Of a stretch of 64,000 nucleotides of DNA, positions 37,500 to 64,000 are shown one piece after another. The stretch lies in NCBI GenBank assembly GCA_964633465.1, contig CAZWGB010000001.1, positions 4,753-68,752 on the forward strand, in the 5' to 3' direction. The DNA is from an uncultured Woeseiaceae bacterium. Lineage in GTDB: Bacteria; Pseudomonadota; Gammaproteobacteria; Steroidobacterales; UBA11654. The stretch's first letter is position 1. Every line of letters starts with the position of its first letter. The position numbers and the translations under genes are program-made. A model generated the notes under the pieces. It saw nothing but the letters and a program-made list of their open reading frames with translations. It was not told the DNA's origin and ran no database searches.

Positions 37500-37639
37500 T
37501 GGTCTATTATCATACTAGCACATATTTTGAACAACTCATTTGCAACTCAGTTTGTTATGACCTGATGCCAGATCTTGATACCATTTCTGAATACTCATAT
37601 ATGCAATTTGATTGAGTCTTTGTTAATTTGTGTTATTAG

Positions 37640-49883: not shown

Positions 49884-50474
49884 ATGCCATTAGTGAAACC
49901 ACTTTCTCCAGAAAGCAACCCAGACGTCAGCAAATTGGCCGAATTTTTTAACGAGACTTTAGGATTTTGTCCAAATTCTGTGTTAACCATGCAAATAAGA
50001 CCTGAAATTGCACGATCTTTTATAAATTTAAATATGGCCGTAATGACCAACCATGGGAGAATTACTTCCGCTCTTAAAAGAATCATTGCCTGGGTGAGTA
50101 GCAACGCAGCAGGTTGCAAATACTGTCAGGCTCATGCCATCCGAGCTGCAGAGCGATACGGCGCTGAACAAGAACAACTGGATAATATTTGGGAATATAG
50201 AACCCATAAATCATTCAATGAGGCTGAAAGAGCTGCACTGGATTTTACATTGGCTGCATCACAGATTCCCAATGCAGTTGATAATGAGCTCCAACAGCGA
50301 CTGAATAGGTATTGGGATGATGGAGAAATCGTCGAAATTTTAGCTGTCGTATCTTTATTTGGTTATTTAAACCGATGGAATGACAGTATGGCAACCAGCA
50401 TTGAAAATGGAGCAATTGAGTCGGCTGAAAAATATTTAGCGAAAAGTGGATGGAACAAAGGCAAACATGCATAA
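49884..50474 (+). CDS. Carboxymuconolactone decarboxylase / AhpD-like (peroxidase-related) family protein
   Basis: 196 aa with a CKYCQAH (CxxC-x-H) motif in an AhpD-like context. Confidence 0.75.
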   Translation: MPLVKPLSPESNPDVSKLAEFFNETLGFCPNSVLTMQIRPEIARSFINLNMAVMTNHGRITSALKRIIAWVSSNAAGCKYCQAHAIRAAERYGAEQEQLDNIWEYRTHKSFNEAERAALDFTLAASQIPNAVDNELQQRLNRYWDDGEIVEILAVVSLFGYLNRWNDSMATSIENGAIESAEKYLAKSGWNKGKHA

Positions 50475-50532
50475 AATCCTATGGTATTAACTCCACCAAA
50501 TTCTATATAATCTTATATCTTTAGGAGAAGCA

Positions 50533-51540
50533 ATGATGTCAATCGCCAATAAAAAATGGATCTTAAAAACCAGACCTGTAGATTTAGTTAAAGAATCTGA
50601 TTTTGAGTTTATAGAAGAAGTTTTGCCCGATTTAGAGGACGGACAAATTCTTATCGCTAACAACTACCTCTCTGTCGATCCAACACAAAGGATGTGGTTG
50701 ACGGATGCTCCTGGATACTTGCCCCCTATACAAATAGGTGAAGTAGTTCGATCTGGAGGTATTGGTACGGTATTGGAGTCAAAGAATTCAAAATATACTG
50801 AGGGCGATTTGGTAACTGGTCTCGTTGGTTGGCAAACTCACACCATCAGCACAGGGAAGGCAGAAAATGCATTCCGAGTAATCCCCAATGTGCTCCCAAT
50901 TCCAACAATGCTCAACGTTCTCGGGACCACAGGAATAACTGCTTATTATGGTCTTTTAGATATTGGCCAACCAAAAGCTGGAGAGACTGTTTTAGTTTCA
51001 GGTGCGGCAGGCGCAACAGGTTCAGTGGTGGCTCAAATAGCTAAAATTAAGGGATGCAATGTTATTGGCATTGCCGGAGGCGAAGAAAAATGTGCCTGGT
51101 TAAAAGATTGTGGTTTAGATCATGTAATTGATTATAAAAATTCAGATGTTCATAAAGAGCTGCCTAAAGTTGCGAATTCAGGTATCGATGTCTATTTCGA
51201 CAATGTGGGTGGACCACTGCTTGAAACCGTTCTTTGGCATATCAATTTAAACGCAAGGGTTGTTATATGTGGAGCCATTTCAGGATATTTGGCTGGGGAA
51301 TTGCCACCAGGACCCAGGAATATAATTAATCTTTTAATACAAAGAGCTCGTATGGAAGGGTTTCTGGTGCTTGATTACCTGAGTAGGGCGGATGAGGCTA
51401 TTGAACATTTAGCTGCCTGGCTTATTGAGGGAAAAATAAAGCACAGGGAAGATATTCAAGAGGGTATCGAGAACTGCCCAGAGACTTTGAATAGATTATT
51501 CACGGGCAAAAATCTTGGCAAGCAAATGTTAAAAATATAA
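50533..51540 (+). CDS. NADP-dependent medium-chain reductase (YncB/CurA/prostaglandin-reductase-like)
   Basis: 335 aa, VSGAAGATGSVVAQIAKIKGC cofactor motif, and a C-terminal GKN.GK..L ending typical of this subfamily. Confidence 0.85.
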   Translation: MMSIANKKWILKTRPVDLVKESDFEFIEEVLPDLEDGQILIANNYLSVDPTQRMWLTDAPGYLPPIQIGEVVRSGGIGTVLESKNSKYTEGDLVTGLVGWQTHTISTGKAENAFRVIPNVLPIPTMLNVLGTTGITAYYGLLDIGQPKAGETVLVSGAAGATGSVVAQIAKIKGCNVIGIAGGEEKCAWLKDCGLDHVIDYKNSDVHKELPKVANSGIDVYFDNVGGPLLETVLWHINLNARVVICGAISGYLAGELPPGPRNIINLLIQRARMEGFLVLDYLSRADEAIEHLAAWLIEGKIKHREDIQEGIENCPETLNRLFTGKNLGKQMLKI

Positions 51541-51573
51541 TTTGAATGTCGATTGTAACCTGAGGAGAAAATT

Positions 51574-51885
51574 GTGAATCAGATCTGTAGGCTTTATTTA
51601 CTGTTGGCCGTTATCGGTGCCATTCTACCCATGACGCAGTTCATCCCTTGGATTCAGGCTGAAGGATGGTCCCTGTCACCGTTCATTCAAGCTTTATTTA
51701 CCACGCTTCCAGCAGCTGGGTTTACCCTAGATTTAGTCCTTACCTCCATTACTTTCTGGGTCTTTGTCTACAGCGAACAAAGAGCGTTAAATGCTAAATT
51801 ATTTGGTTTGGTCGCAGTTAATTTATTGATCGGACTTTCTTGCGCCCTTCCTCTGTACCTCTATTTAAGGATAAGAGAAAATTGA
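51574..51885 (+). CDS. Small membrane protein (DUF2834-like)
   Basis: 103 aa, GTG start, 3 TM. The pattern IPWI...G......F.......A..F..DL resembles DUF2834 as I recall it. Confidence 0.5.
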   Translation: MNQICRLYLLLAVIGAILPMTQFIPWIQAEGWSLSPFIQALFTTLPAAGFTLDLVLTSITFWVFVYSEQRALNAKLFGLVAVNLLIGLSCALPLYLYLRIREN

Positions 51886-51889
51886 AAGC

Positions 51890-52672
51890 ATGACTGAAAC
51901 AACAGAAAAAAAGGAATTAAACAAACCGGTGAAAGCCTACAAGAATCTTGATTTTCTCAACAGCAGAGATGCACGTACCTTACGAATCTTAGCTGAGTAT
52001 TTGCACCCAAGGACGCAGTTTCTATCCCAAGGATTGCAGAACACCATAGTTGTATTTGGTTCTGCCAGAGCCCCTGCTCCAGAGGACGTAGCGCAAATCA
52101 AAGTTGCCAATCCAAAAGACCCAAGACTCAAGCTTACAAAATATTACGAACAAACTGTTGAATTAACCAATCGATTGACGCAATGGTCCCTAGGTCTGGA
52201 TGCAGAGGAGCAGCCTTTTGTTGTTTGTACAGGTGCCGGACCTGGTGTAATGATGGCAGCTAACCGTGGTGCTCATGAGGCAGGAGGGAAAAATGCAGGC
52301 TTGGCTATTTCTCTGCCAAAGGAATCTGTTGTAAATCCTTATGTGACACCTGAACTTTATTTTGAATTTCATTATTTCTTTACCCGAAAATTCTGGTTTT
52401 CCTATTTTGCCAAGGCCTTGGTTATCATGCCGGGCGGTTTTGGAACTCTTGATGAACTATTTGAATTATTGACCCTGATTCAGACCAAGAAAATCGAGAG
52501 ACCACTTCCAATAGTTTTATTCGGCAAAGAATTTTGGAACAAATTGATAAATTTTGAAACATTGGTTGAATTTGGCACCATCAGCCCAGAAGATCTTAAT
52601 CTTTTCCATCTCAGTGACCAAGTTGAGGATGCGTTTCAATTTATTACCTCCAACTTGAAGGTTGAAAGATGA
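51890..52672 (+). CDS. LOG/TIGR00730-family Rossmann-fold nucleotide-binding protein (nucleotide N-glycosidase type)
   Basis: VVFGSAR..., GAGPGVMMAANRGA and PGGFGTLDELFE motifs. Confidence 0.8.
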   Translation: MTETTEKKELNKPVKAYKNLDFLNSRDARTLRILAEYLHPRTQFLSQGLQNTIVVFGSARAPAPEDVAQIKVANPKDPRLKLTKYYEQTVELTNRLTQWSLGLDAEEQPFVVCTGAGPGVMMAANRGAHEAGGKNAGLAISLPKESVVNPYVTPELYFEFHYFFTRKFWFSYFAKALVIMPGGFGTLDELFELLTLIQTKKIERPLPIVLFGKEFWNKLINFETLVEFGTISPEDLNLFHLSDQVEDAFQFITSNLKVER

Positions 52673-53400
52673 AATTCTTGAGCACTACATTTTTTAGAAA
52701 AGCCCACCGATGGCTCGGCCTGCTTGTGTCCATACAATTACTGATGTGGACTGCTTCTGGTTTATTTTTTTCAATTCCCGATATCACAGATGTCAGAGGT
52801 GAACAATATTTAAACCAGGGCTATTCAATTGATATCAACCAAGAGGCGAGAGAAAACATTGCACCAATTAGTGCAATTGTTGACATTGCAAAAGTCAATC
52901 TAGAGGCCAATGAGACTGTGCTGTTAAAATATCGAGCTGGGAGGTTGATTTATCAAGTGGAAAAAAATCCTCCAGGAGAAAATCTCATTTTTGATGCTCT
53001 CACTGGCCAACCCATGACTTATATTACCTCCAGCGAAGCGCTGTCCATCGTTTCTGAGCATACCGAACTAAGTCCAACTGAGGCAGTATTAATCAATCAA
53101 CCCAAAACTGGATCAGAATTCAGAGGTAGGAATCTGCCGTTGTACAAAGTCACGGTGACCAAGCCCAAAAAAGGTATTGTTTATGTCGATCCAGTGACCG
53201 GGGAAATAGCTGCAATACGAACAAAACTTTGGCGTGCTTGGGATTTTTTATGGTCTCTCCATATCATGGATTACCAGGAACGGGATGATTTTTCTCATTG
53301 GTTGCTGAGGTTATTCTCAGCACTAGGGGTATTGACTGTGCTCTCTGGAATTATCTTATGGTTCTATTCTGGAAAATTTCAGGATCGCGCACTCTCTTGA
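52669..53400 (+). CDS. PepSY-domain membrane protein
   Basis: N-terminal FRKAHRWLGLLVSIQLLMWTASGLFF (PepSY-associated TM helix), a periplasmic PepSY-like region, and a C-terminal TM. ATGA overlap with the LOG gene. Confidence 0.7.
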   Translation: MKFLSTTFFRKAHRWLGLLVSIQLLMWTASGLFFSIPDITDVRGEQYLNQGYSIDINQEARENIAPISAIVDIAKVNLEANETVLLKYRAGRLIYQVEKNPPGENLIFDALTGQPMTYITSSEALSIVSEHTELSPTEAVLINQPKTGSEFRGRNLPLYKVTVTKPKKGIVYVDPVTGEIAAIRTKLWRAWDFLWSLHIMDYQERDDFSHWLLRLFSALGVLTVLSGIILWFYSGKFQDRALS

Positions 53401-53402
53401 CC

Positions 53403-53855
53403 ATGCAAAAAAATTTCAGTGATGTAATGCCAGTACTTGCAAGACACAACGGCGAGTGGACGGGTGATTACATTTATTTTTCCTCACAAGGTGAAATCCT
53501 TGATCGTCACAAATCTCACTTAATATGCAGAATCACCGATGAGGAAAAATACCCATACTATCAACAAAATACTTACACATGGAACGATGGTAGGACTGAG
53601 CAATTTGAGCTCTATGCAACTTACAAACTAGCTCGAATATGGTTTGATACAGATCGTATACAAGGGTCTTGTTGGGAAATAGATTCTAAAACACTAATGC
53701 TCAATTGGACCCGTCAAGACATACCTAAAGGTTATTTCTATGAGATGATCCAGATCAATGAAGCAAACGATGCTCGTTCTCGAGTTTGGCATTGGTTTGA
53801 AAACGATGTTTTGATTAAACGAGTTTGCATCAGTGAGACTAAGATAATAACTTAG
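53403..53855 (+). CDS. Hypothetical 150-aa soluble protein (beta-rich, possibly lipocalin/calycin-like)
   Basis: ATG 53403 lies 2 nt after the PepSY stop (the track ORF starts earlier, inside PepSY). Trp/Tyr-rich alternating pattern; no family recognised with confidence. Confidence 0.5.
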   Translation: MQKNFSDVMPVLARHNGEWTGDYIYFSSQGEILDRHKSHLICRITDEEKYPYYQQNTYTWNDGRTEQFELYATYKLARIWFDTDRIQGSCWEIDSKTLMLNWTRQDIPKGYFYEMIQINEANDARSRVWHWFENDVLIKRVCISETKIIT

Positions 53856-53863
53856 AAGAGACA

Positions 53864-55006
53864 ATGAGAGGGTTTTTACCAGAAATAAATCCGTTAAGGG
53901 AGTATTCAATTGCTTCTCCTTCTCTGGGTAGATTGCAAGCAATAGCCGGCAATTTACCAAAATTGCTACTCACTGGTAGAGTTCCAAGTACGCTTGAATC
54001 CCTGCAACACGATGATTTTTCCATCGACGAATTGGTTGCAAAGAATTTAGACCAGGATTTAAGACTGGCTATGGCTCAACTCAGTTTTATTGCTCATGCC
54101 TACATCTGGGGTGGCATCAAGCCGCAAGGACACTTGCCTGAAGTGGTTGCAAAACCCTGGGTGCAGGTTGCCAAATTTTTCGATAGGCCTCCTGTCCTCA
54201 GTTATGCAAGCTATTGTCTCGATAACTGGTTTTTAATAGAGCCAGAAGAATCAATTTCTTTGGAAAATATCGGGTTGATCACCAATTTTTTAGGAGGCGT
54301 TGATGAAGATTGGTTTGTAACCGTTCATGTATGCATAGAATATGCTGCTGCTGATGCTATTGAAGCAGCAGAAATTATTGCAAAATGTACATCTGAATCA
54401 AGCGAGGAGGAGATTGCATCTCTTTTTCATCGTATTGAACGTTCTTTGATTGACGTCAACCAAATTTTTTCCAGGATGCCAGAAAGATGTGATCCCTATA
54501 TCTACTATCACCGAGTGAGACCGTTTATCTTTGGGTCCAAAGATAATCCTGACCTCAAAGGTGGACTGATTTATGAAAATCAGTTTAACAACGAGCCCCA
54601 ATTTTTCCGAGGAGAAACAGGAGCACAAAGCAGTATTATTCCTAGTTTGGATGGGGCCTTAGGCATCCAACATAGCACTGATAGTCTTAGGCATTACCTT
54701 AATGAGATGCGTGAATATATGCCTTTTGAGCACAGAAAATTCATAGAAAAAGTAGAAACTACATCTACAATCAAAGAACTTGTTGAAGAATCAAGGAATC
54801 TTCAGGATTCTTACAATGCCTGTCTTGAGCAAATAAGAGCTTTCCGTGCCCTCCATCTAAAATACGCCGGTGCCTATATTCATAAACAATCGCAACAAAA
54901 AAATCCATTTGGCAGCGGAGGCTCAACGATCAGGGGAACCGGTGGAACCCCTTTTATGTCTTATCTTAAAAAACACAGAGACGAGACTGAAAAACACAAA
55001 AAATAA
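53864..55006 (+). CDS. Indoleamine 2,3-dioxygenase (IDO) family heme enzyme
   Basis: PPVLSYASYCLDNW (human IDO1: PPILVYADCVLANW), GETGAQSSIIPSLD (GGSAGQSS..Q.FD), and the FRALHL...GTGGTPFMSYLK proximal-His region (GTGGT.LM.FLK). Confidence 0.8.
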   Translation: MRGFLPEINPLREYSIASPSLGRLQAIAGNLPKLLLTGRVPSTLESLQHDDFSIDELVAKNLDQDLRLAMAQLSFIAHAYIWGGIKPQGHLPEVVAKPWVQVAKFFDRPPVLSYASYCLDNWFLIEPEESISLENIGLITNFLGGVDEDWFVTVHVCIEYAAADAIEAAEIIAKCTSESSEEEIASLFHRIERSLIDVNQIFSRMPERCDPYIYYHRVRPFIFGSKDNPDLKGGLIYENQFNNEPQFFRGETGAQSSIIPSLDGALGIQHSTDSLRHYLNEMREYMPFEHRKFIEKVETTSTIKELVEESRNLQDSYNACLEQIRAFRALHLKYAGAYIHKQSQQKNPFGSGGSTIRGTGGTPFMSYLKKHRDETEKHKK

Positions 55007-55044
55007 AATCCTCTTAAATACCTGAAAAAAACGCTCTCTCACTA

Positions 55045-55073
55045 TTGTATTTAAGTAACTCCTTAAATATAAT
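55045..55073 (+). promoter_or_regulatory. Putative sigma-70 promoter for the TrpR-like/his operon
   Basis: TTGTAT (55045-55050), a 17-nt spacer, then a perfect TATAAT (55068-55073). The predicted start lies just before the tandem repeats. Confidence 0.4.
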
Positions 55074-55081
55074 GCTTTATC

Positions 55082-55105
55082 ACATTAATACATTAATACA
55101 TTGAT
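55082..55105 (+). repeat. Three tandem 8-mers ACATTAAT-ACATTAAT-ACATTGAT abutting the TrpR-like start codon (candidate operator)
   Basis: Read directly. It occupies the whole predicted 5' UTR where an RBS would normally lie. Confidence 0.6.
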
Positions 55106-55108
55106 ACC

Positions 55109-55423
55109 ATGAAATTAGATAGAAAATATACTGAAAAACAGGAAAGAGAAGTTGAAGATAAATTGTTTGAGGCCATTAAAACTTTAGATGGCTTTGAAGA
55201 GTATCGATCATTTTTTCTGGATATTCTTACTCCTGCAGAGTTCCAAGCCATAAAAGACAGATGGGCAGTAGCTGCACTTTTGTACGAAGGTTATACATAC
55301 AGAGAGATCAACAAAATTAGTGGTGTAAGCATTACCACGGTTGCACGTGTGGCAAGGTTTATATCCAATGGCTCAGGTGGATATCAACTAGCTCTTGAGA
55401 GAGTTAAGAAGAATAATGAATAA
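55109..55423 (+). CDS. TrpR-related YerC/YecD family DNA-binding protein
   Basis: 104 aa. LFEAI..L....E....F..D..TP.E......R..VA.LL.EG.TYREI....GVS..TVARV.R....GSGGYQLALER fits the YerC/YecD (Trp-repressor-like) pattern. Confidence 0.75.
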   Translation: MKLDRKYTEKQEREVEDKLFEAIKTLDGFEEYRSFFLDILTPAEFQAIKDRWAVAALLYEGYTYREINKISGVSITTVARVARFISNGSGGYQLALERVKKNNE

Positions 55424-56312
55424 AAAACGCATTAAAATTGCTATTCAAAAATCAGGCAGATTAGCCGATCATTCTTCTGATCTACTGAAAAAGTGTGGTT
55501 TGGTTGTTAGTCGAAATAAAGGACAGCTGATTGGCTATGCTGAAAATATGCCTTTTGATCTTTTGTTTGTAAGAGACGATGATATTCCAAGTCTGGTAAA
55601 AGATAATCTAGCTGATTTAGGCATAGTGGGTCTAAATGTTGTTTTGGAAAAACAATTTGAGTATACAAATTCCACACAAAAAGAGTTATTTTCCATTGAA
55701 GAATATTTAGATTTTGGTCAATGCAGACTGTCTTTCGCTTACCCAGAAGTTGGTGATATTCAATCACTGGACCAACTAGTAAATAAAAAAGTTGCTACTA
55801 GTTATCCATTTATTGTCGGTGATTATCTTGAAAGAGAGAATTTCGATGTAGAAGTAATAAAGTTTTCAGGTGCTCTTGAGCTGGCACCAAGTTTGGGCAG
55901 TGCGGATGCAATTTGCGATTTAGTGTCCTCAGGGAGGACATTGAGAGTCCATAATCTTAATGAAGGTGAGTCGATCTTAGAAAGCACGGCTGTAGTGATC
56001 AAATCTAAGAACATCTCGGACCCCTTTAAGCAAGAATGGATTAGGAAATTATTAGAACGTATTAGTGGCGTGTTGCAAGTTAGGGAGAGTAAATACGTCA
56101 TGATGCACGCTCCAAGGAATTCCATTGATAAGATCACTGAACTCATTCCTGGTACAGAATCGCCAACAATTATCCCACTCGAAGGGACAGATGAAACAGT
56201 TGCCTTGCACGTAGTGTGTAAGGAGGATGTTTTTTGGGAAACACTCGAAAATCTTAAGCAAGAAGGAGCATCGTCAATTTTAGTCGTCCCTGTCGAAAAA
56301 ATGTTGGTGTAA
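55416..56312 (+). CDS. hisG: ATP phosphoribosyltransferase, long form
   Basis: From ATG 55416 (MNKKRIKIAIQKSGRL), 298 aa, with a C-terminal regulatory domain. 8-nt overlap (ATGAATAA) with the TrpR-like gene. Confidence 0.9.
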   Translation: MNKKRIKIAIQKSGRLADHSSDLLKKCGLVVSRNKGQLIGYAENMPFDLLFVRDDDIPSLVKDNLADLGIVGLNVVLEKQFEYTNSTQKELFSIEEYLDFGQCRLSFAYPEVGDIQSLDQLVNKKVATSYPFIVGDYLERENFDVEVIKFSGALELAPSLGSADAICDLVSSGRTLRVHNLNEGESILESTAVVIKSKNISDPFKQEWIRKLLERISGVLQVRESKYVMMHAPRNSIDKITELIPGTESPTIIPLEGTDETVALHVVCKEDVFWETLENLKQEGASSILVVPVEKMLV

Positions 56313-56315
56313 ATT

Positions 56316-57620
56316 ATGGATCTCTTAGAAATTACTGATTGGAAATCGGCAACAGCAAAAAACCGTTTATCAGTTTTATCACGACCTGGTATTTCTCGAT
56401 CTGAGGATTTGGATTATCAAATCAAGGAAATCATCAATAATGTTCGTTTTGCAGGTGATGAAGCACTCAAGGAAATGACTTTAAAATACGATGATGTTTC
56501 ATTATCAGATTTTAAAATGACTCTGGATGAAATCGATCAAGCAATCAAGCAAACACCTCAGTCAATCAAAAAAGCAATCAAAATAGCAATTGCTAATGTT
56601 ACAAAATTCCACAAGCATAAAATGGAAACTTCTGTAGAATCCATTGAAGTTGTTCCAGGTGTCTTGTGTGGAGAAATAACAAAACCAATCCATTCTGTTG
56701 GTTTATATGTTCCATCTGGGAATAATCCACTTGCCTCCACTGCAATTATGCTAGGTGTCCCATCCTTATTGGCCAAATGTCCCCAGAGAATCTTATGTTC
56801 CCCACCAAACCAAGAAGGTTTGGTTGATAGAAACATTGTTACTGCTGCTTCTGCATGTGGGATATCAGATATTTACAAAATAGGCGGAGCACAAGCAATT
56901 GCAGCAATGGCATATGGAACAAAAACCATACCTAAAGTAGACAAAATATTTGGTCCTGGAAGTACATGGGTAACCATTGCAAAATCATTAATCGCTTCGA
57001 ATCATAATTCCGTTTCTATTGACATGCCTGCTGGTCCAACTGAAGTTATGGTAATTTCTGACGGCTCAATTGATCCATCCTTTGTCGCATTTGATTTACT
57101 GTCACAGGCAGAACATGGGCCTGACTCACAGGTTATATTGATTTGTACAAATCGGGATTTTGCAGAAAAGGTAAAATTTCAAGTTCATGAAATTCTAGGT
57201 GATTTATGCACCAAAGAGACTGCCCTGCAATCGCTAAAAAACAGCAGAGTTATTCTGGTTGATCATCTTGATAATGCATTCGAGATTGCAAACTCGTACG
57301 CGCCAGAACATTTAATCGTTGCATTGCCTGATGCAAGACAATACCTCGATAGTATTACTAATGCTGGTTCGATATTTCTTGGCTACTGGAGTCCAGAGTC
57401 TGCTGGGGATTATTGCAGTGGTACAAACCATGTTTTACCTACATATGGTTATGCAAAATCAATCAGTGGTATATCAGTGAGTAGTTTTACAAAGTCTATT
57501 TCTGTGCAAGAACTAACTCGAAGTGGATTGGCGAGACTATCAAGTACGATTATAGAATTGGCAAGAGCTGAAGGGTTGGAAGCACATGCAAGAGCTGTGG
57601 AAGTCCGATTAGAAAATTAA
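56316..57620 (+). CDS. hisD: Histidinol dehydrogenase
   Basis: 434 aa; IGGAQAIAAMAYGT, SQAEHG, GDY..GTNHVLPT motifs. Confidence 0.95.
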   Translation: MDLLEITDWKSATAKNRLSVLSRPGISRSEDLDYQIKEIINNVRFAGDEALKEMTLKYDDVSLSDFKMTLDEIDQAIKQTPQSIKKAIKIAIANVTKFHKHKMETSVESIEVVPGVLCGEITKPIHSVGLYVPSGNNPLASTAIMLGVPSLLAKCPQRILCSPPNQEGLVDRNIVTAASACGISDIYKIGGAQAIAAMAYGTKTIPKVDKIFGPGSTWVTIAKSLIASNHNSVSIDMPAGPTEVMVISDGSIDPSFVAFDLLSQAEHGPDSQVILICTNRDFAEKVKFQVHEILGDLCTKETALQSLKNSRVILVDHLDNAFEIANSYAPEHLIVALPDARQYLDSITNAGSIFLGYWSPESAGDYCSGTNHVLPTYGYAKSISGISVSSFTKSISVQELTRSGLARLSSTIIELARAEGLEAHARAVEVRLEN

Positions 57621-57621
57621 A

Positions 57622-58680
57622 GTGACTCTAGATATTAACAATCTTGTCAGGCCCGAAGTAATGGCACTTAAGCCATATAAACCTGCTCAATATTTACCGA
57701 ATATGATTCGGCTAAACGCCAATGAAAGTCCCTATACTTTATTTGATGAAAATGAAGATATGGCTTTGAATCTGTATCCTCAAGCCGTTCCTGTAAAAAT
57801 AAGGAATGCTGTTGCTGATTACTTAAATCTCAGTGTTGAGAAATGTGTTATTACACGGGGAAGCACTGAAGCAATCGATTTGCTTACAAGAGTTTTTTGT
57901 CGACCCAAAATAGATGAGGTAATTATTTTCCCTCCAACTTTTGAAATGTATCAGATGTATGCTTCAATCCAGGGGGCAAAAATTAAATCAGTGCCTTTGC
58001 TTGCAAATAAAAACTATGCTTTGGATGTTTCTGAATTAAAGAGACAAATTACCCCCGAAAGTAAATTGACCTTTCTGCCATCGCCATCTAATCCAACAGG
58101 CCATAGCTTTAATAAAAGAACAATTTTTGAAGTGTGCAAGTCTTTGAAGGGTTTTGGTTTGTTGATATTGGACGCTGCCTACATTGAATTTACGGACAAG
58201 GATTATACAAGTGAATTATTGAATGAGTTTGATAATGTTGTTGTCTTAAGAACACTCTCCAAGGCTTTCGGACTAGCTGGCTCTAGATGTGGCGCTATGT
58301 TGTCTTCTAAAGCAATCTGCGATCTTGTTATGAGGGTAATCCCACCTTATTCTTTTTCGGTGCCCGCAGAACAATCAGTTTTAAAGGCTTTGTCGGATAA
58401 AGGCATCACAAATTCAAAAAACAATATTAAGAAAATAATTGAAGAAAGAAAGTATTTGCTTGCTGAGTTTTCAAAGATAGATTGTATAAAAAAAGTGTTC
58501 CCTTCAGATGCTAATTTTATCCTGCTCAGGGTTGAAGATGCCGATCGATTCTATCAAAGGGCAATGGACGTTAAGTTACTCGTAAGGAATGTCAGTTATC
58601 AACCAACATTAGAAAACTGCATTAGGGTTACTGTTGGTAGTAGAGAACAAAATAATCTTCTTATTAAGGCCATCGCTTAA
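57622..58680 (+). CDS. hisC: Histidinol-phosphate aminotransferase
   Basis: GTG start 1 nt after the hisD stop; LNANE(S)P, SPSNPTG, and the RTLSKAFGLAG PLP-lysine motif. Confidence 0.9.
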   Translation: MTLDINNLVRPEVMALKPYKPAQYLPNMIRLNANESPYTLFDENEDMALNLYPQAVPVKIRNAVADYLNLSVEKCVITRGSTEAIDLLTRVFCRPKIDEVIIFPPTFEMYQMYASIQGAKIKSVPLLANKNYALDVSELKRQITPESKLTFLPSPSNPTGHSFNKRTIFEVCKSLKGFGLLILDAAYIEFTDKDYTSELLNEFDNVVVLRTLSKAFGLAGSRCGAMLSSKAICDLVMRVIPPYSFSVPAEQSVLKALSDKGITNSKNNIKKIIEERKYLLAEFSKIDCIKKVFPSDANFILLRVEDADRFYQRAMDVKLLVRNVSYQPTLENCIRVTVGSREQNNLLIKAIA

Positions 58681-58681
58681 A

Positions 58682-59758
58682 ATGAACACCAACAATACAA
58701 AAATCCTTTTCTTAGACCGAGATGGGACAATAATTTACGAGCCTGATGATTTTCAGGTCGATTCTATTGAAAAAATAAAATTGGTGCCCGGTGTCATCTC
58801 ATCACTTAACTCGTTATTGGAAAATGGTTATGAACTGGTAATGGTCAGTAATCAGGATGGTATGGGAACAAAAACTTTTCCTGCGCAAGACTTTCTCAAA
58901 GCACACAACTACATAATAGATTTATTTGAGTCACAAGGAATCAAGTTTAAGGATATATTCATCTGTCCTCATTTCAAATCCGATCGATGTGATTGCAGAA
59001 AACCTTCCACAGGCTTATTAACCGAATTTTTTGTAAAAAATAATATCGATAATGAAAGATCATATGTGATCGGTGATCGAAAAACCGATATGGAGTTAGC
59101 AAAAAAACTTACTTTAAAAGGTATCCAAATAGATCCGTATCGAGTTGGTGCATGGAAAAGTATTGAGAATGATATTCTGAGTGTTGACCGAAGATCAAAA
59201 ATTATTCGCGAGACTAGCGAAACGAAAATAAGTGCTGAAATTAACCTTGCTGTTTCAGAACCAGTAAACATTGATACAGGGATCGGTTTTTTTGATCACA
59301 TGTTAGAACAGTTAGCAAAACATGCAGATATATCGATTATTATCCAATGCCATGGTGATTTAAATATTGACGAACATCACTCTGTTGAGGATATAGCTCT
59401 TGCTCTTGGGCAGGCCTTTAGGCAGGCGCTGGGAAAGAAATATGGAATCAACCGTTATGGATTTACATTACCAATGGATGAATCCATTGCTTCCGTTACT
59501 TTGGATTTATCTGGCAGACCACACTTTTCTTTTAAAGGGCGCTTTAGTCGAGAAAAAGTAGGTGGTTTGCCAACAGAATTAATTCCCCATTTCTTTCAAT
59601 CATTAAGCCAATCTTTGAAAGCAAGTATCCATATAGAATTCAAAGGTGATGATAATCACCATATGATAGAGGCTTGTTTTAAAGCATTTGGGCGTGCATT
59701 TAAACAGGCAATTAGTCTTACCAGTAATAGTCTTCCATCCACAAAGGGTGTTTTGTGA
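58682..59758 (+). CDS. hisB: Bifunctional histidinol-phosphatase / imidazoleglycerol-phosphate dehydratase
   Basis: From ATG 58682: the HAD motif FLDRDGT, then IGPD motifs (GIGFFDHML, DEHHSVEDIALALG, NHHMIEACFKAFGRA). Confidence 0.95.
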   Translation: MNTNNTKILFLDRDGTIIYEPDDFQVDSIEKIKLVPGVISSLNSLLENGYELVMVSNQDGMGTKTFPAQDFLKAHNYIIDLFESQGIKFKDIFICPHFKSDRCDCRKPSTGLLTEFFVKNNIDNERSYVIGDRKTDMELAKKLTLKGIQIDPYRVGAWKSIENDILSVDRRSKIIRETSETKISAEINLAVSEPVNIDTGIGFFDHMLEQLAKHADISIIIQCHGDLNIDEHHSVEDIALALGQAFRQALGKKYGINRYGFTLPMDESIASVTLDLSGRPHFSFKGRFSREKVGGLPTELIPHFFQSLSQSLKASIHIEFKGDDNHHMIEACFKAFGRAFKQAISLTSNSLPSTKGVL

Positions 59759-60357
59759 GCCTTGAGACAAAAATTGCTGTAATAGATTATGGCGGTGCAA
59801 ATATTTCTTCACTCACATTTGCCCTAACTAGACTTAATGCCAAGTTTACAGTGACCAATAGAAGCGAAGAAATTTCGAGTGCAACCCACATAATACTTCC
59901 TGGAGTTGGAGCAGCTAAAGATGCAATGGAAAAACTTTCACAATCGAGCCTAATCAAGACAATCAAAAATCTTACTCAACCAACTTTGGGTATCTGTCTA
60001 GGAATGCAGCTTTTATTTGATTATTCAATGGAAGAAAACGTTAAGTGTTTAGGAATTATTGGAGGAGAATGTAGGAGTTTTGATCGCAAAAAAAATTTAC
60101 CAGTGCCACATATGGGATGGAACAATGTTTCGATAAATAAAAAAGTTCCATTGACTAATAATTTCAACGAAGGTTCTTACTTTTATTTTGTTCACAGTTT
60201 TTATACTCCATTGATTAATGAAACCGTGGCAACAACTAAATATGTTGTTCCTTTCTCAAGTATTGTGCAGAAAGAAAATTTTATGGGCACACAATTTCAT
60301 CCAGAAAAATCAGGAAAAGAAGGCTCAAAACTTCTAGGTTCATTTATCAATTTATAA
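59755..60357 (+). CDS. hisH: Imidazole glycerol phosphate synthase, glutamine amidotransferase subunit
   Basis: GTG start in a GTGA overlap with hisB; GICLGMQLL catalytic Cys motif; FHPEKS. Confidence 0.9.
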   Translation: MSLETKIAVIDYGGANISSLTFALTRLNAKFTVTNRSEEISSATHIILPGVGAAKDAMEKLSQSSLIKTIKNLTQPTLGICLGMQLLFDYSMEENVKCLGIIGGECRSFDRKKNLPVPHMGWNNVSINKKVPLTNNFNEGSYFYFVHSFYTPLINETVATTKYVVPFSSIVQKENFMGTQFHPEKSGKEGSKLLGSFINL

Positions 60358-60363
60358 AATTTT

Positions 60364-61101
60364 ATGAATTTAATACCAGCAATTGATCTTATGGATGGAC
60401 AATGCGTCAGATTATTTCAGGGTGGTTTTAATACTGTAACTTATTATGATTTCAATCCTACTGATTTAGCCAATAAATATGAGGAAATGGGTTTTTCAAA
60501 GCTACATATTGTTGATCTTGATGGGAGTAGAAAAGGATTTTCAAATAATTCAAGTGTAATTACCGAAATTATTAAATCCTCAGGCTTGATAGTTCAATTG
60601 GGCGGAGGGATTCGAAGTATAGATAAAATTAGAGAATGGATTGATATAGGGGTTGATCGAATAATATTAGGCAGCTATGCAATTCATAATATCAACAAAC
60701 TGAGAAATTCGTTGAATGACAATGAATGCTCCAAACTCATTATTGCTTTGGACGTTTTATTCAAAAACAATCTACCCGTAGTTATGACTCATGGATGGCA
60801 GAAATCAAGCGGCAAATCTTTGTGGTCATTACTGAAAAAATTTAATGAGGAAAATTTTGACAATTTTCTTGTCACTGATATATCAAAAGATGGAACGATG
60901 ATTGGACCAAATATCGAATTATATTCGAACTGTATAGAGTACTCTCCAGAGTCACGTTTTACTGCTTCCGGAGGCATATCTAATATCTCAGATGTCATTG
61001 AATTGTCTGATTTAGGTTTAGATTCAACTGTCACTGGTAAAGCCCTATTAGAAAATACAATCACTGCAGAGGAGATAAAAAAATTCTTACGAAACGAATA
61101 A
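60364..61101 (+). CDS. hisA: ProFAR isomerase
   Basis: [18 protein letters not shown]-terminus and GGGIRS motif; 245 aa. Confidence 0.9.
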
Positions 61102-61850
61102 TCCCATGTCTAGATGTTAAGGAAGGCTCGGTGGTAAAAGGAGTTCGCTTTCAGAATCATGAGGTGATTGGAGATATCTTGGATTTAGCTTCGAAATATA
61201 ATCTTGAAGGAGCAGATGAGCTCGTCTTTTACGATATTACAGCAAGTCCAGATAATAGATCTGTTGATAAAAAATGGATTCATAAAATTGCTAAAAAACT
61301 GGATATTCCTTTCTGCGTAGCAGGAGGTATTAAATCAGTTGCAGAAGCTGAAGAGGTTTTGAATTATGGAGCTGACAAAATATCAATCAATACGCCAGCT
61401 TTGTTAAACCCAGATCTAATTGATAATTTAGCAGAACGTTTTGGTTCCCAGTGTGTGGTAGTAGGCATAGACAGTTTTCAAGAAGATTCCGAATATAGAG
61501 TTTACAGTTATACAGGTGACCCAAATAAAACGGTTAATACCTTAAAGAACACTTTTGATTGGGTGAAAGAAGTGCAACATAGAGGTGCTGGAGAGATTGT
61601 TCTAAATTGCATGAATCAAGATGGTGTTAAACGAGGTTTTGATATTGATCAGCTTCTGAGAGTTAGAGATCTATGCACAGTTCCATTGATTGCTTCTGGC
61701 GGGGCTGGGACCATGAAACATTTTGCAGAAGTAATAAAAAAAGCAGATGTCAGTGGGGCACTAGCAGCATCAGTTTTTCATAAAGAATTGATAGGTATAA
61801 CCCAGTTAAAACAATACTTAATCAAACAAGACATAGAGGTAAGAATATGA
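61083..61850 (+). CDS. hisF: Imidazole glycerol phosphate synthase cyclase subunit, apparently initiated at ATT
   Basis: The track ORF starts at GTG 61131, but the in-frame upstream codons read (ATT)[22 protein letters not shown]. This aligns residue for residue with E. coli His[24 protein letters not shown]. No ATG/GTG/TTG is available in that frame after the stop at 61038. AGGAG (61070-61074) lies 8 nt before ATT 61083. Confidence 0.9.
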
Positions 61851-62146
61851 GCAAAATATCCAATAAATTTATTTTTAAATTGGAAGACATTATAGATAAA
61901 AGAATAGTGGATCAGTCTGAAATGAGCTATACCGTTGACATTCTTAATAAAGGAGTCGGTCAAGTGGCAAAGAAACTCCTCGAAGAGAGCTCAGAACTTG
62001 CTTTCGCATCTGTAGAACAAAAGAGTACAGCAGATATTGTCCACGAAGCAGCAGATTTAATTTTTCATTTTTTAATCATGCTTAAAGCAACAGGTCTGAC
62101 ATTAAATGATGTTTCAGAGGAATTGGAAAGTAGACATAAAAACTAA
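61847..62146 (+). CDS. hisE: Phosphoribosyl-ATP pyrophosphatase
   Basis: 99 aa; SYT..LL..G......KK..EE..E pattern; ATGA overlap with hisF. Confidence 0.85.
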
Positions 62147-62163
62147 GAACTCATGTTCCCAGG

Positions 62164-62658
62164 CTATAGTTTGGTTGGGTTAGAAGTCTCAGAATAAACA
62201 ATCTCTGGATCAAAAACTTTTTCAGAATCACTGAAACTGAGCATGATTTTTTTATTCACTTTAAGATTCTGATTAAGTCTAATTTTTCGATAAAAACAAG
62301 AGCGATAACCCACGTGACAGCTTGCGCCCCCTGTTACTGTTACCTTTGCCCAAACAGCATCTTGATCGTCATCAATGACCAATTCGTTGACTTTTTGGAC
62401 AAAACCACTTGTTTCTCCTTTATGCCAAATGATTCCTCTACTTCGGCTGAAATAATGCATTTCTCCTTTTTGTATGGTGAGCCTAAAAGCCTCCCGATCC
62501 ATGTAAGCATGCATCAATAGTTCACCTGTTTCGAAATCGGTCGTGACGACTGGGATGAGTCCTTTTGAATCAAATTTAGGGGCTAGCTCATTACCTTCTT
62601 CAACTTGTTTTATGCTTCTTCTCTCAGAGAAAATATTTTCATTTTTCACTTGTTTCAT
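62164..62658 (-). CDS. hisI: Phosphoribosyl-AMP cyclohydrolase
   Basis: GLIPVVTTD...ELLMHAYMDREA...YFSRSR...WHKGETSG....V.....D.D.D.....V...G..CH.G..SCF; 164 aa with a C-terminal extension. Confidence 0.9.
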   Translation of the reverse strand: MKQVKNENIFSERRSIKQVEEGNELAPKFDSKGLIPVVTTDFETGELLMHAYMDREAFRLTIQKGEMHYFSRSRGIIWHKGETSGFVQKVNELVIDDDQDAVWAKVTVTGGASCHVGYRSCFYRKIRLNQNLKVNKKIMLSFSDSEKVFDPEIVYSETSNPTKL

Positions 62659-63766
62659 GTCTCCTATTTAACAACTCTGTTTCCAACTGGACGCTCAAAC
62701 CTGCCCTTATATTCTCAGTACGTTCAGCCAGTAGTGTTTTCCACCATGCCACCGTGTCCCTGGCTGTTTCTCTTGTGGGTCGATTCCAGAGTCCTTTAGC
62801 TACTGATCTCTTACCACTGACTAGAGCTGCACCAGCATATTCTGAAATGGGCGGTATCCAGATTGGAAATGCACCTTCATCGATATTGCCCTGAGCTTGG
62901 ATAAATTCATAGTCAACCCAGACTGGGACCATGTCGGCACCAGTAACCGCAAGACTGTCATTCAAAAGATCGCCCATTGTGAAAGTGCCTGCGGGCGTCA
63001 CTGTATTGTATGTGCCGATTATGTTCTTATCGGCCACATCGATGGTAAATTTTGCCAAATCCCGGACATCAATAATCTGGATCATGTCCTTCGGAGTTCC
63101 TGGCCAAACCATTTCACCACCCAGTAGGGTGCGTGCAAGCCAGTAGGTATAGCGATCGGTGTGATCACCTGGACCTGCAACATAGGTAGGACGAAGGATG
63201 GACAGTCGCTTTTCGCCAAATTCCTGTGCAACTCTTTTCTCACACAGTGCCTTAAGTGGACCATAGGTATCAGGGGTTACTTTTTCGATGCTTTCATCAG
63301 CAATTTTAGCCAGTGGTGCATCTTCGTTTAAAGGTTCAGCTAAACTGGCATAGGCTGAAACAGTGGAGGTATAAATGTAGTGAGAGGTGACAGGTGCCAG
63401 TAGCCTGGCTGAATCTCTAACGTGTCTTGGTACATAACCTGAGTTGTCAATAACCACATCCCAGCTGTTTCCATGCAGAGCATCCAATCCGTTATTTCTA
63501 TCGCCAATAAGGGTTTCTAAATCAGGGAATAAAGCGTTGTTGGTGCGACCTCTATTGAAAAGAGTTACATCATGTCCTCGTTTTAATGCTTCTCTAACCA
63601 TGTGTGGGCCTAGAAAACCAGTACCTCCTAGAATCAAAATACGCAGTGAATTTCCATTGAAGTCTACATAATTTTTAGCTTGAGATAGTTGGAGCGGACT
63701 TCCAAAAGCAAGTGCTCCGGTTCCTAATAATCCTCCCTTAAGGATCTGACGTCGTTTATTGTCCAT
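62639..63766 (-). CDS. NAD-dependent epimerase/dehydratase (extended SDR) family protein with a twin-arginine signal
   Basis: MDNKRRQILKGGLLGTGALAFG Tat-type leader, followed by ILILGGTGFLGPHMVREALKRGHDVTLFNRG. Its 3' end overlaps the hisI start by 20 nt. Confidence 0.8.
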   Translation of the reverse strand: MDNKRRQILKGGLLGTGALAFGSPLQLSQAKNYVDFNGNSLRILILGGTGFLGPHMVREALKRGHDVTLFNRGRTNNALFPDLETLIGDRNNGLDALHGNSWDVVIDNSGYVPRHVRDSARLLAPVTSHYIYTSTVSAYASLAEPLNEDAPLAKIADESIEKVTPDTYGPLKALCEKRVAQEFGEKRLSILRPTYVAGPGDHTDRYTYWLARTLLGGEMVWPGTPKDMIQIIDVRDLAKFTIDVADKNIIGTYNTVTPAGTFTMGDLLNDSLAVTGADMVPVWVDYEFIQAQGNIDEGAFPIWIPPISEYAGAALVSGKRSVAKGLWNRPTRETARDTVAWWKTLLAERTENIRAGLSVQLETELLNRRHETSEK

Positions 63767-63904
63767 TTATTTTGTAAGTTGTTGAATGATCAGTCACAAG
63801 TTTATATGAGGCTCTATTAGATATCTATTCACTCTTGTTGATCTGATCAACTTGAGGCACTGGGTTCGTTGAGGTAAGGTCTAAACATGAAAAAATTAGG
63901 CCAA

Positions 63905-63976
63905 TGGGGTGTAGCCAAGCGGTAAGGCAACAGGCTCTGACCCTGTGATTCGCAGGTTCGAATCCTGCCACCCCAG
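63905..63976 (+). tRNA. tRNA-Gln (anticodon CTG)
   Basis: Manual fold: acceptor TGGGGTG/CACCCCA, D arm GCC-AAGCGGTAA-GGC, anticodon stem ACAGG/CCTGT with loop CT-CTG-AC, T arm GCAGG-TTCGAAT-CCTGC, discriminator G, no encoded CCA. Very similar to E. coli tRNA-Gln. Confidence 0.9.
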
Positions 63977-64000
63977 AATTTACCGCATTGTTAAGCCAGA

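Follow-up and report, generated by a model that had tools for sequence, protein, structure and literature searches.

The 64-kb stretch of DNA analyzed here (the window; contig CAZWGB010000001.1 of an uncultured Woeseiaceae bacterium) carries a cluster of histidine biosynthesis (his) genes headed by a gene for a 104-amino-acid protein of the YerC/YecD type. We conclude, with a probability of about 0.82, that this gene is the first of a hisR-hisGDCBHAFE operon that is autoregulated and controlled by its own product, HisR, and that positions 55073-55108, just upstream of hisR, are the predicted operator. The central idea of a preliminary description of this DNA, that the small Trp-repressor-fold protein may be the (auto)regulator of the his operon, is correct but was already published in 2022 (Ashniev et al. 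2022, BMC Genomics 23(Suppl 6):558; PMC9413887), and it is supported by that study, by a match to a matrix built from published sites and by the conserved gene linkage and operator. What is new beyond PMC9413887 is the clade, an operator in the form of a phased array, a presence/absence polymorphism of the his block and a hint, from two loci (L030 and L031), of transfer of that block.

The protein encoded at 55109-55423 (+ strand), about 100 amino acids in size as expected, is a YerC/YecD-model rather than a TrpR-model protein. Its open reading frame (ORF) matches the Pfam Trp_repressor family PF01371 (8.8e-22, 77.4 bits) and the yecD_yerC model TIGR02531 (3.8e-21, 75.3 bits, above the cutoff of 42.2), and scores 25 bits against the TrpR equivalog TIGR01321, below the cutoff of 67.25. 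The nearest solved structures are 3KOR, 3FRW and 3G1C (E values 7.6e-15 to 1.4e-11), the last of which, from E. eligens, is treated as a HisR (PMC9413887); no E. coli TrpR chain is found among the solved-structure matches at E<=1. Residues E31, D38, E44, Y64, T77 and R80 are invariant in these three structures and 11 relatives. Compared by eye, without the authors' alignment, with the description in PMC9413887, the protein has the residues specific to HisR, i.e. the acidic residues of helix 2, a Tyr in place of Arg69 of TrpR, and Thr81 and Arg84 of the recognition helix. TrpR proper was considered for this protein and rejected, given the TIGR01321 score below cutoff and neighbouring and downstream genes that belong to the his and not to the trp or aro pathways.

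The preliminary description regarded YerC/YecD proteins as lacking an established function, which is outdated, since the family member first described as B. subtilis YerC was named HisR in 2022 as a histidine-dependent TrpR-family repressor, acting on histidine biosynthesis and uptake genes (PMC9413887). Binding of Ruminococcus gnavus HisR to DNA at its predicted site needs histidine, as measured in a fluorescence polarisation assay, and his operons with hisR in first position and a site upstream were predicted for 62 proteobacterial genomes (PMC9413887). In these genomes the site is 20 bp long, lies just upstream and has the consensus TGTAnTArnnnnyTnTTACA, near the TrpR motif; the supplementary sites include tgttacactacgttaataca in Legionella, tgtactaatatgttaataca in Francisella and tgtattaacacattaacaca in Fangia (PMC9413887). 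By family, the 104-amino-acid gene of the window is hisR, and histidine is its predicted ligand.

The gene stands first in the his operon. Its TAA stop codon (55421-55423) lies within an 8-nt overlap with hisG, whose ATG is at 55416 (junction ATGAATAA, 55416-55423), as the preliminary description had pointed out, and hisDCBHAFE come next. The hisG start is backed by an N-terminus, M-x-x-x-R-I-K-I-A-I-Q-K-S-G, that is conserved among relatives. All HisR relatives found come from uncultured marine Gammaproteobacteria (Tara, GORG single cells and metagenome-assembled genomes), and a contig scan of representative genomes yielded 10 hisR loci with 56-61% identity. The linkage recurs across genomes: hisR and hisG overlap or abut in loci L001-L009, L020-L024, L033-L047 and L055-L059, which span 50-99% HisR identity. 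Among loci that extend past hisR, the exceptions are an orphan sister lineage, described below, and L010 and L048, where hisR follows hisI. In these two loci hisE and hisI are co-directional and hisR has a promoter and operator of its own.

Upstream of hisR, a -35 hexamer TTGTAT (55045-55050, +) and a -10 hexamer TATAAT (55068-55073, +), separated by 17 nt, make up a predicted sigma-70-type promoter (55045-55073), with a predicted transcription start near 55080. The preliminary description had called this promoter near-consensus; this is true of the -10 hexamer, which matches at 6/6 positions, but overstated for the -35 hexamer, which matches TTGACA at only 3/6. For this reason the pair fell below the threshold of a consensus promoter scan and was left unlisted by it. 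We retained the promoter on the grounds of conservation: TATAAT is invariant in a 14-sequence alignment (A2) and near-invariant overall, and relatives with protein identities as low as 50% again show a TTG-type -35 hexamer at a spacing of 17 nt. In the window and its closest relatives only, both hexamers are spanned by an imperfect inverted repeat, ATTGTATTTAAG ... CTTAAATATAAT (55043-55074), and the -35 region TGTATTTA resembles the left half-site of HisR with one extra or mismatched base.

Between the promoter and hisR lie three tandem 8-mers (55082-55105, +), namely ACATTAAT at 55082-55089, ACATTAAT at 55090-55097 and ACATTGAT at 55098-55105, followed by ACC and the hisR ATG (55109). Their presence, ending 3 nt before the gene, agrees with the preliminary description and was recovered both by an array search and by Tandem Repeats Finder (period 8, 3.2 copies, 94% matches). 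The repeat is not a product of chance: no other array of three units with one mismatch or none exists in the window at periods of 6-12, 100 first-order Markov randomisations produced none of this kind, and ACATTARTACATTARTACA, allowing up to three mismatches, occurs at a single place in the window, the array itself, where 0.07 matches were expected.

The 8-mers are predicted operator sequence, the same units as those of the HisR operator read in another phase. We built a symmetrised weight matrix solely from 22 published gammaproteobacterial HisR sites, which themselves score 17.6-29.5 bits. Its best match in the 64 kb, with 15.9 bits, is TGCTTTAT-CACA-TTAATACA at 55073-55092 (register A, taken as primary), which overlaps the final base of the -10 hexamer (55073) and the predicted start site; its right half is perfect (8/8), and its left half agrees at 4/7 specified positions. 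Shifted by +8 bp, CACATTAA-TACA-TTAATACA at 55081-55100 (register B; 9.0 bits, third-best in the window) has the same place relative to the -10 box as the dyad in loci L003-L008. Shifted by +16 bp, the weak register C, TACATTAA-TACA-TTGATACC at 55089-55108 (4.1 bits, seventh in the window), ends one base before the hisR ATG. The predicted operator would thus consist of a 20-bp TrpR-like dyad (TGTAyTAA-N4-TTArTACA), with a degenerate left half here, plus TTArTACA-like units in an 8-bp phase. The proposal that the tandem repeats are the operator therefore holds in that the repeats belong to it, but the operator is more than the 8-mers and starts 9 bp earlier, at 55073. Searches of the window with two IUPAC patterns and the published-site matrix gave no further HisR site that was accepted. 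The second-best matrix match, at 37503-37522 (TCTATTATCATACTAGCACA, 12.7 bits), was rejected as due to chance, being within the range of the maxima of shuffled windows (11.0 +/- 2.7 bits); a minus-strand gene resembling that for cyclopropane-fatty-acid synthase (cfa-like methyltransferase) starts 4 nt downstream of it.

The score of register A alone is not compelling, and the significance of 55073-55092 as a dyad of the type TGTAnTAr-N4-yTAnTACA in the operon promoter region therefore rests on position and conservation. When the matrix was run over 280 kb from 63 related loci, all matches of at least 12 bits were directly upstream of hisR start codons. Better dyads occupy the homologous place in relatives, e.g. 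TGTATTAACGCATTAATACA in L024 (28.3 bits), TGTACTAACACATTAGTACA in L003 (26.5 bits) and TGTTTTAGCACATTAATACA in L021 (24.3 bits). In the 14-sequence alignment promoter and operator are conserved; the promoter spacer and the flanks diverge. Conservation of the hisR-hisG linkage and of the repeats in relatives had been named beforehand as a point on which the idea stood or fell, and both the linkage and the operator array are indeed conserved.

No his leader or T-box was found by Rfam at E<=1 over 50000-64000, where the sole match is a tRNA, and there are no runs of three or more His codons within 54000-56500. The predicted 5' untranslated region (UTR) of hisR is unstructured (-1.2 kcal/mol). By these three lines, the region upstream of the first his gene shows neither attenuator nor T-box features, and the earlier remark that neither a His-codon-rich leader peptide nor a T-box-like element is visible was borne out.

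The following mode of action can be proposed. HisR dimers, with histidine bound as co-repressor, would occupy 55073-55108, a stretch that opens with the final base of the -10 hexamer and runs right up to the hisR ATG, and by covering the -10 hexamer and the predicted start site would block initiation. With hisR on its own transcript and its stop codon overlapping the hisG start, the repressor would be made in proportion to the enzymes, and translation of hisG is likely coupled to that of hisR. Since hisR is within the transcript and coupled to hisG in this way, the operon would be under negative autoregulation. A second layer of control could come from feedback inhibition of the long-form HisG.

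The arrangement of the operator units suggests that more than one dimer is involved. We scored 8-mers with the published half-site matrix at each offset from the right half-site in 17 lineages, among which the GC-richer relatives L055, L056 and L059 (50-55% identity) served as a partial stand-in for the upstream regions of Legionella, Francisella and Xanthomonas. The mean half-site score was 11.2 bits at offset 0, 5.2 bits at -8 and 4.3 bits at +8, and ranged from -5 to -22 bits at the other offsets. Extra half-site-like units in 8-bp phase thus accompany the core dyad. In the window, the sequence in half-site phase reads TGCT, TTATCACA, TTAATACA, TTAATACA, TTGATACC, ATG, the four units covering 55077-55108, and scores 11.5 bits at +8 (TTAATACA) and 3.1 bits at +16 (TTGATACC). 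The orphan lineage has the units TTAATACA TTAGTACA TTAATACA, and L055, 50% identical and GC-richer, has TGTATTAA-CGTA-TTAATACA-TCGATACA, ending 3 nt before the ATG. Unit number differs by 8 bp among relatives, L024 having one unit fewer.

At the E. coli trp operator, TrpR dimers reportedly bind in tandem 8 bp apart, weaker auxiliary sites adding to repression (Lawson & Carey 1993; Jeeves et al. 1999). By analogy, two or three HisR dimers probably bind in tandem in the same manner, 8 bp apart. Lineages with a degenerate left half (the window, the orphan lineage and L010) tend toward stronger extra units, which, the lineages being non-independent, is a hint only. If operators are phased arrays of this kind, unit number (2-4 here and in relatives) and the quality of the left half would trade off, tuning repression. 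The 8-bp spacing between TrpR half-sites is cited in the HisR paper, which does not mention tandem HisR sites (PMC9413887).

A second feature of the locus emerges from its nearest sister lineage, in which HisR is 80-89% identical to that of the window and 99 amino acids long. This lineage is the more abundant one, its protein P0043 alone being found on 321 contigs vs. 92 for the window protein; NCBI proteins HIB25446.1, HIG34775.1 and MEY8243133.1 belong to it. It shares the synteny PepSY-DUF3598-IDO-hisR-epimerase, with flanks 88-92% identical, but the 7.2 kb from hisG to hisI (window 55416-62658) are replaced by about 70 nt with a terminator-like hairpin (loci L011-L017, L025-L029, L046 and L060-L063). 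The gene hisI, although outside the HisR-controlled transcript, is inside the missing block, as the deletion junctions show. The orphan hisR keeps an intact promoter and operator, and no other HisR target was found in 20 kb around four orphan hisR genes, where its own operator is the sole matrix match. In a collection of 5.8 billion proteins, homologues of the window hisG are found at 90-99% identity and then at 69% or below, with none at 70-89%, and because of this gap the sister lineage appears to be without an orthologous hisG. The ratio of nonsynonymous to synonymous substitution rates (dN/dS) is about 0.19 between the window hisR and the orphan copies, and 0.45-0.52, from few substitutions, within the orphan lineage. 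The missing block and the gap in hisG identities suggest a loss of histidine biosynthesis in the sister lineage that left behind an orphan autoregulated repressor.

Two independently assembled loci, L030 (1501-3306) and L031 (1501-3296), combine an orphan-type hisR (79%) and the terminator spacer with hisG and hisD genes that show 98-100% nucleotide identity to the window. Identity to the window jumps from 81% to 98% at about 55409, the hisG start. This pattern suggests that the his block was recently moved by recombination from one background into another, diverged by about 19%, or else that both loci share an assembly chimera. It is conceivable that proteobacterial-type HisR operators are 8-bp-phased arrays binding two or three tandem dimers rather than single 20-bp dyads, and that in this marine clade the his block behind hisR is a dispensable, recombining cassette; we put forward this combined view only tentatively, at somewhat less than even odds. 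With the block as a cassette, the sister lineage would be a histidine auxotroph that keeps HisR for another target. There is a precedent in auxotrophs that retain HisR for a transporter and for hisR itself (PMC9413887).

Several points weigh against HisR control of the his operon in the window. The 15.9 bits of register A are below the weakest training site (17.6 bits) and exceed the maxima of shuffled windows (11.0 +/- 2.7 bits; top shuffle 20.2 bits) by about 1.8 standard deviations, and the left half-site is degenerate (TGCTTTAT vs. TGTAyTAA). The 17 lineages of the phasing analysis are phylogenetically non-independent. The only binding assay was done with a Firmicute protein that has a differing motif, cacTTTA...TAAAgtg (PMC9413887). 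The sister lineage retains hisR without his genes. Finally, hisR is not preceded by a Shine-Dalgarno sequence here, nor in the orphan lineage, the operator reaching the ATG. Translation of hisR may initiate on the A/U-rich leader independently of such a sequence. In the 56-59% relatives L003-L008, AGG/GGAA motifs are present upstream of hisR.

The retention of hisR without his genes indicates that HisR probably has at least one other target, and one possible explanation for it is that HisR in this clade is a broader histidine sensor, whose main conserved role would be to act on itself and on unlinked targets, e.g. for histidine uptake, with the his operon as an optional passenger. The abundant sister lineage, with its IDO-hisR-terminator-epimerase arrangement, intact promoter and operator and no his block, would fit this explanation, as would the gap in hisG identities, the dN/dS of about 0.19 against the orphan copies and the auxotrophs described in PMC9413887. 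Against it, neither the window nor the 20 kb surrounding orphan hisR genes yielded a second site, and the higher dN/dS within the orphans means that constraint may be relaxing. Overall we regard such a role as possible but rather unlikely; it is compatible with, not opposed to, HisR control of the his operon in the window. A different kind of explanation places the repeats at the RNA level. The roughly 28-nt 5' UTR consists almost entirely of (ACAUUAAU)n and could be an A/U-rich translation enhancer or a site for an RNA-binding regulator, the DNA dyad being incidental. The repeats do lie downstream of the predicted transcription start, in an unstructured UTR without a Shine-Dalgarno sequence, and several relatives have UAG-containing units at 8-nt spacing. 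The motif matched, however, is a DNA motif that was obtained independently, from Legionella, Francisella and Xanthomonadales, relatives have true dyads (TGTAyTAA / TTArTACA) that would be meaningless in single-stranded RNA, in L001, L024 and the window the predicted start coincides with the left half or follows it, and no Rfam family matches. An RNA-level role is thus very improbable.

Even less credence can be given to the idea of a regulator that responds to tryptophan, kynurenine or some other aromatic compound and is linked in function with the upstream IDO gene. This gene (PF01231, 5e-87) ends 103 nt upstream of hisR, the family is named for the Trp repressor, and the IDO-hisR adjacency is seen in the orphan lineage as well. 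The idea is largely refuted by the restriction of this adjacency to the closest clade, since hisR has other neighbours elsewhere: L001, L006 and L057 have leuCDB, L055 and L056 a divergent Cys/Met-metabolism gene, and L018 a Na/H antiporter, with only a 3'-end remnant of IDO surviving in that locus. In addition, the operator is downstream and not upstream of IDO, the protein is no match to the TrpR equivalog, and HisR has other residues in place of those that contact Trp in TrpR (PMC9413887). As judged from gene neighbourhoods, IDO is uninformative as to the HisR ligand, and of the earlier suggestion that its proximity points to an aromatic or imidazole ligand only the imidazole part appears to be right, for a different reason. 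The view that the 8-mers are a functionless slippage product, i.e. a microsatellite in an AT-rich spacer, draws on the variation of unit number by 8 bp between relatives, and it is the one we find hardest to credit: the position and sequence of the array are conserved over 50-99% protein identity while the neighbouring spacer diverges, no other such array exists in the 64 kb, and the unit matches a published operator half-site exactly.

HisR control of the window operon, the explanation we prefer, can be compared with that in described systems. As in the proteobacterial HisR-his operons of Legionella, Francisella, Fangia, Xanthomonadales and Caulobacterales (PMC9413887), a YerC/YecD-type gene comes first, before hisGDC and a bifunctional hisB, a single TrpR-like dyad of 20 bp sits close to the hisR start (within about 20-100 nt), and a leader-peptide attenuator is absent. 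The window shares its right half-site TTAATACA with the Legionella and Francisella sites. Unlike the published set, the host belongs to an uncultured marine gammaproteobacterial clade outside that study, hisI is split from hisE and lies on the other strand, the operator has a degenerate left half-site and extends to the start codon as 8-bp-phased units that are undescribed in PMC9413887, and hisR occurs as an orphan in a sister lineage.

Firmicute HisR proteins (B. subtilis YerC and R. gnavus HisR, the latter being the only experimentally tested member) belong to the same family, so that the same histidine co-repressor logic is expected, and they share with the window protein the acidic residues of helix 2 and the helix-turn-helix Tyr, Thr and Arg. 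In contrast, the Firmicute operator consensus is cacTTTAnnnnnnTAAAgtg, the recognition helix differs at three positions (ITTVAR in the window vs. TATISR in E. eligens), and Firmicute hisR is usually unlinked to his genes, with a regulon that often includes transporters. E. coli TrpR, which acts at the trpEDCBA, aroH and trpR operators, has the same fold, a 20-bp dyad with TGTA...TACA ends and an operator over the -10 box and start site, and its gene is autoregulated, as is predicted here. The internal 8-bp periodicity is also shared (ACTAGTTA ACTAGTAC in trpO vs. ACATTAAT ACATTAAT in the window). The window protein is nevertheless no TrpR orthologue, its expected ligand is histidine, its target pathway is a different one and its gene belongs to the regulated operon itself. 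The enterobacterial his leader-peptide attenuator and the Firmicute His T-box serve the same pathway in response to histidine supply, but they are RNA-based, acting through charged tRNA-His, and neither is present in the window.

The remaining genes of the operon, all on the + strand, were assigned by profile matches. They are a long-form hisG with a C-terminal regulatory domain (HisG and HisG_C; 55416-56312), which starts inside hisR, followed by hisD (56316-57620; TIGR00069, 1.6e-149), hisC (57622-58680; TIGR01141, 2.4e-96), hisB for a bifunctional histidinol-phosphatase/imidazoleglycerol-phosphate dehydratase (58682-59758; NF003937, 1.3e-154), hisH (59755-60357; TIGR01855, 4.7e-64), hisA (60364-61101; TIGR00007, 5.2e-67, with 225.8 bits slightly below the curated cutoff of 228.95), hisF (61083-61850; TIGR00735, 3.2e-90, from model position 18) and, as the final gene, hisE (61847-62146; TIGR03188, 5.1e-23). 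If hisF is read from a canonical start codon (GTG, 61131), the conserved RIIPCLD at the N-terminus is missing. The usual Met of hisF lines up with an in-frame ATT at 61083 that follows AGAGGAG (window 61068-61131), and locus L010 (about 1300-1366) has an identical arrangement of ATT and Shine-Dalgarno sequence. It is thus probable that hisF begins at this ATT, with a 19-nt overlap with the end of hisA.

The convergent hisI (62164-62658, - strand; NF000768, 9.7e-45) is split from hisE and overlaps by 20 nt the 3' end of an epimerase/NAD-binding gene (62639-63766, - strand). No HisR site was found upstream of hisI, where it overlaps the end of this gene, with the published-site matrix and IUPAC patterns. 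Probably hisI is co-transcribed with the epimerase-family gene and escapes HisR control. A tRNA gene at the right end of the window (63905-63976; Rfam RF00005, 67.6 bits) adjoins the epimerase-family gene. On the other side of the operon, a conserved trio encoding PepSY-TM, DUF3598_N and bacterial IDO proteins precedes hisR (52669-55006). In L063 (8294-9898) the DUF3598 and IDO ORFs are called as one 534-amino-acid product, which hints at a functional link between the two, and L016 and L062 have an extra glyoxalase-like ORF between IDO and hisR.

Taken at the strength given above, these findings extend protein-based, non-attenuator control of histidine biosynthesis by HisR to abundant uncultured marine gammaproteobacteria, and they allow genes annotated as "YerC/YecD family TrpR-related" to gain a specific, testable annotation. 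The phased architecture of the operator would refine the published 20-bp HisR motif and raise the sensitivity of site searches. The presence or absence of the his block, together with the orphan repressor, points to histidine auxotrophy and a cassette-like exchange of the pathway in a marine population.

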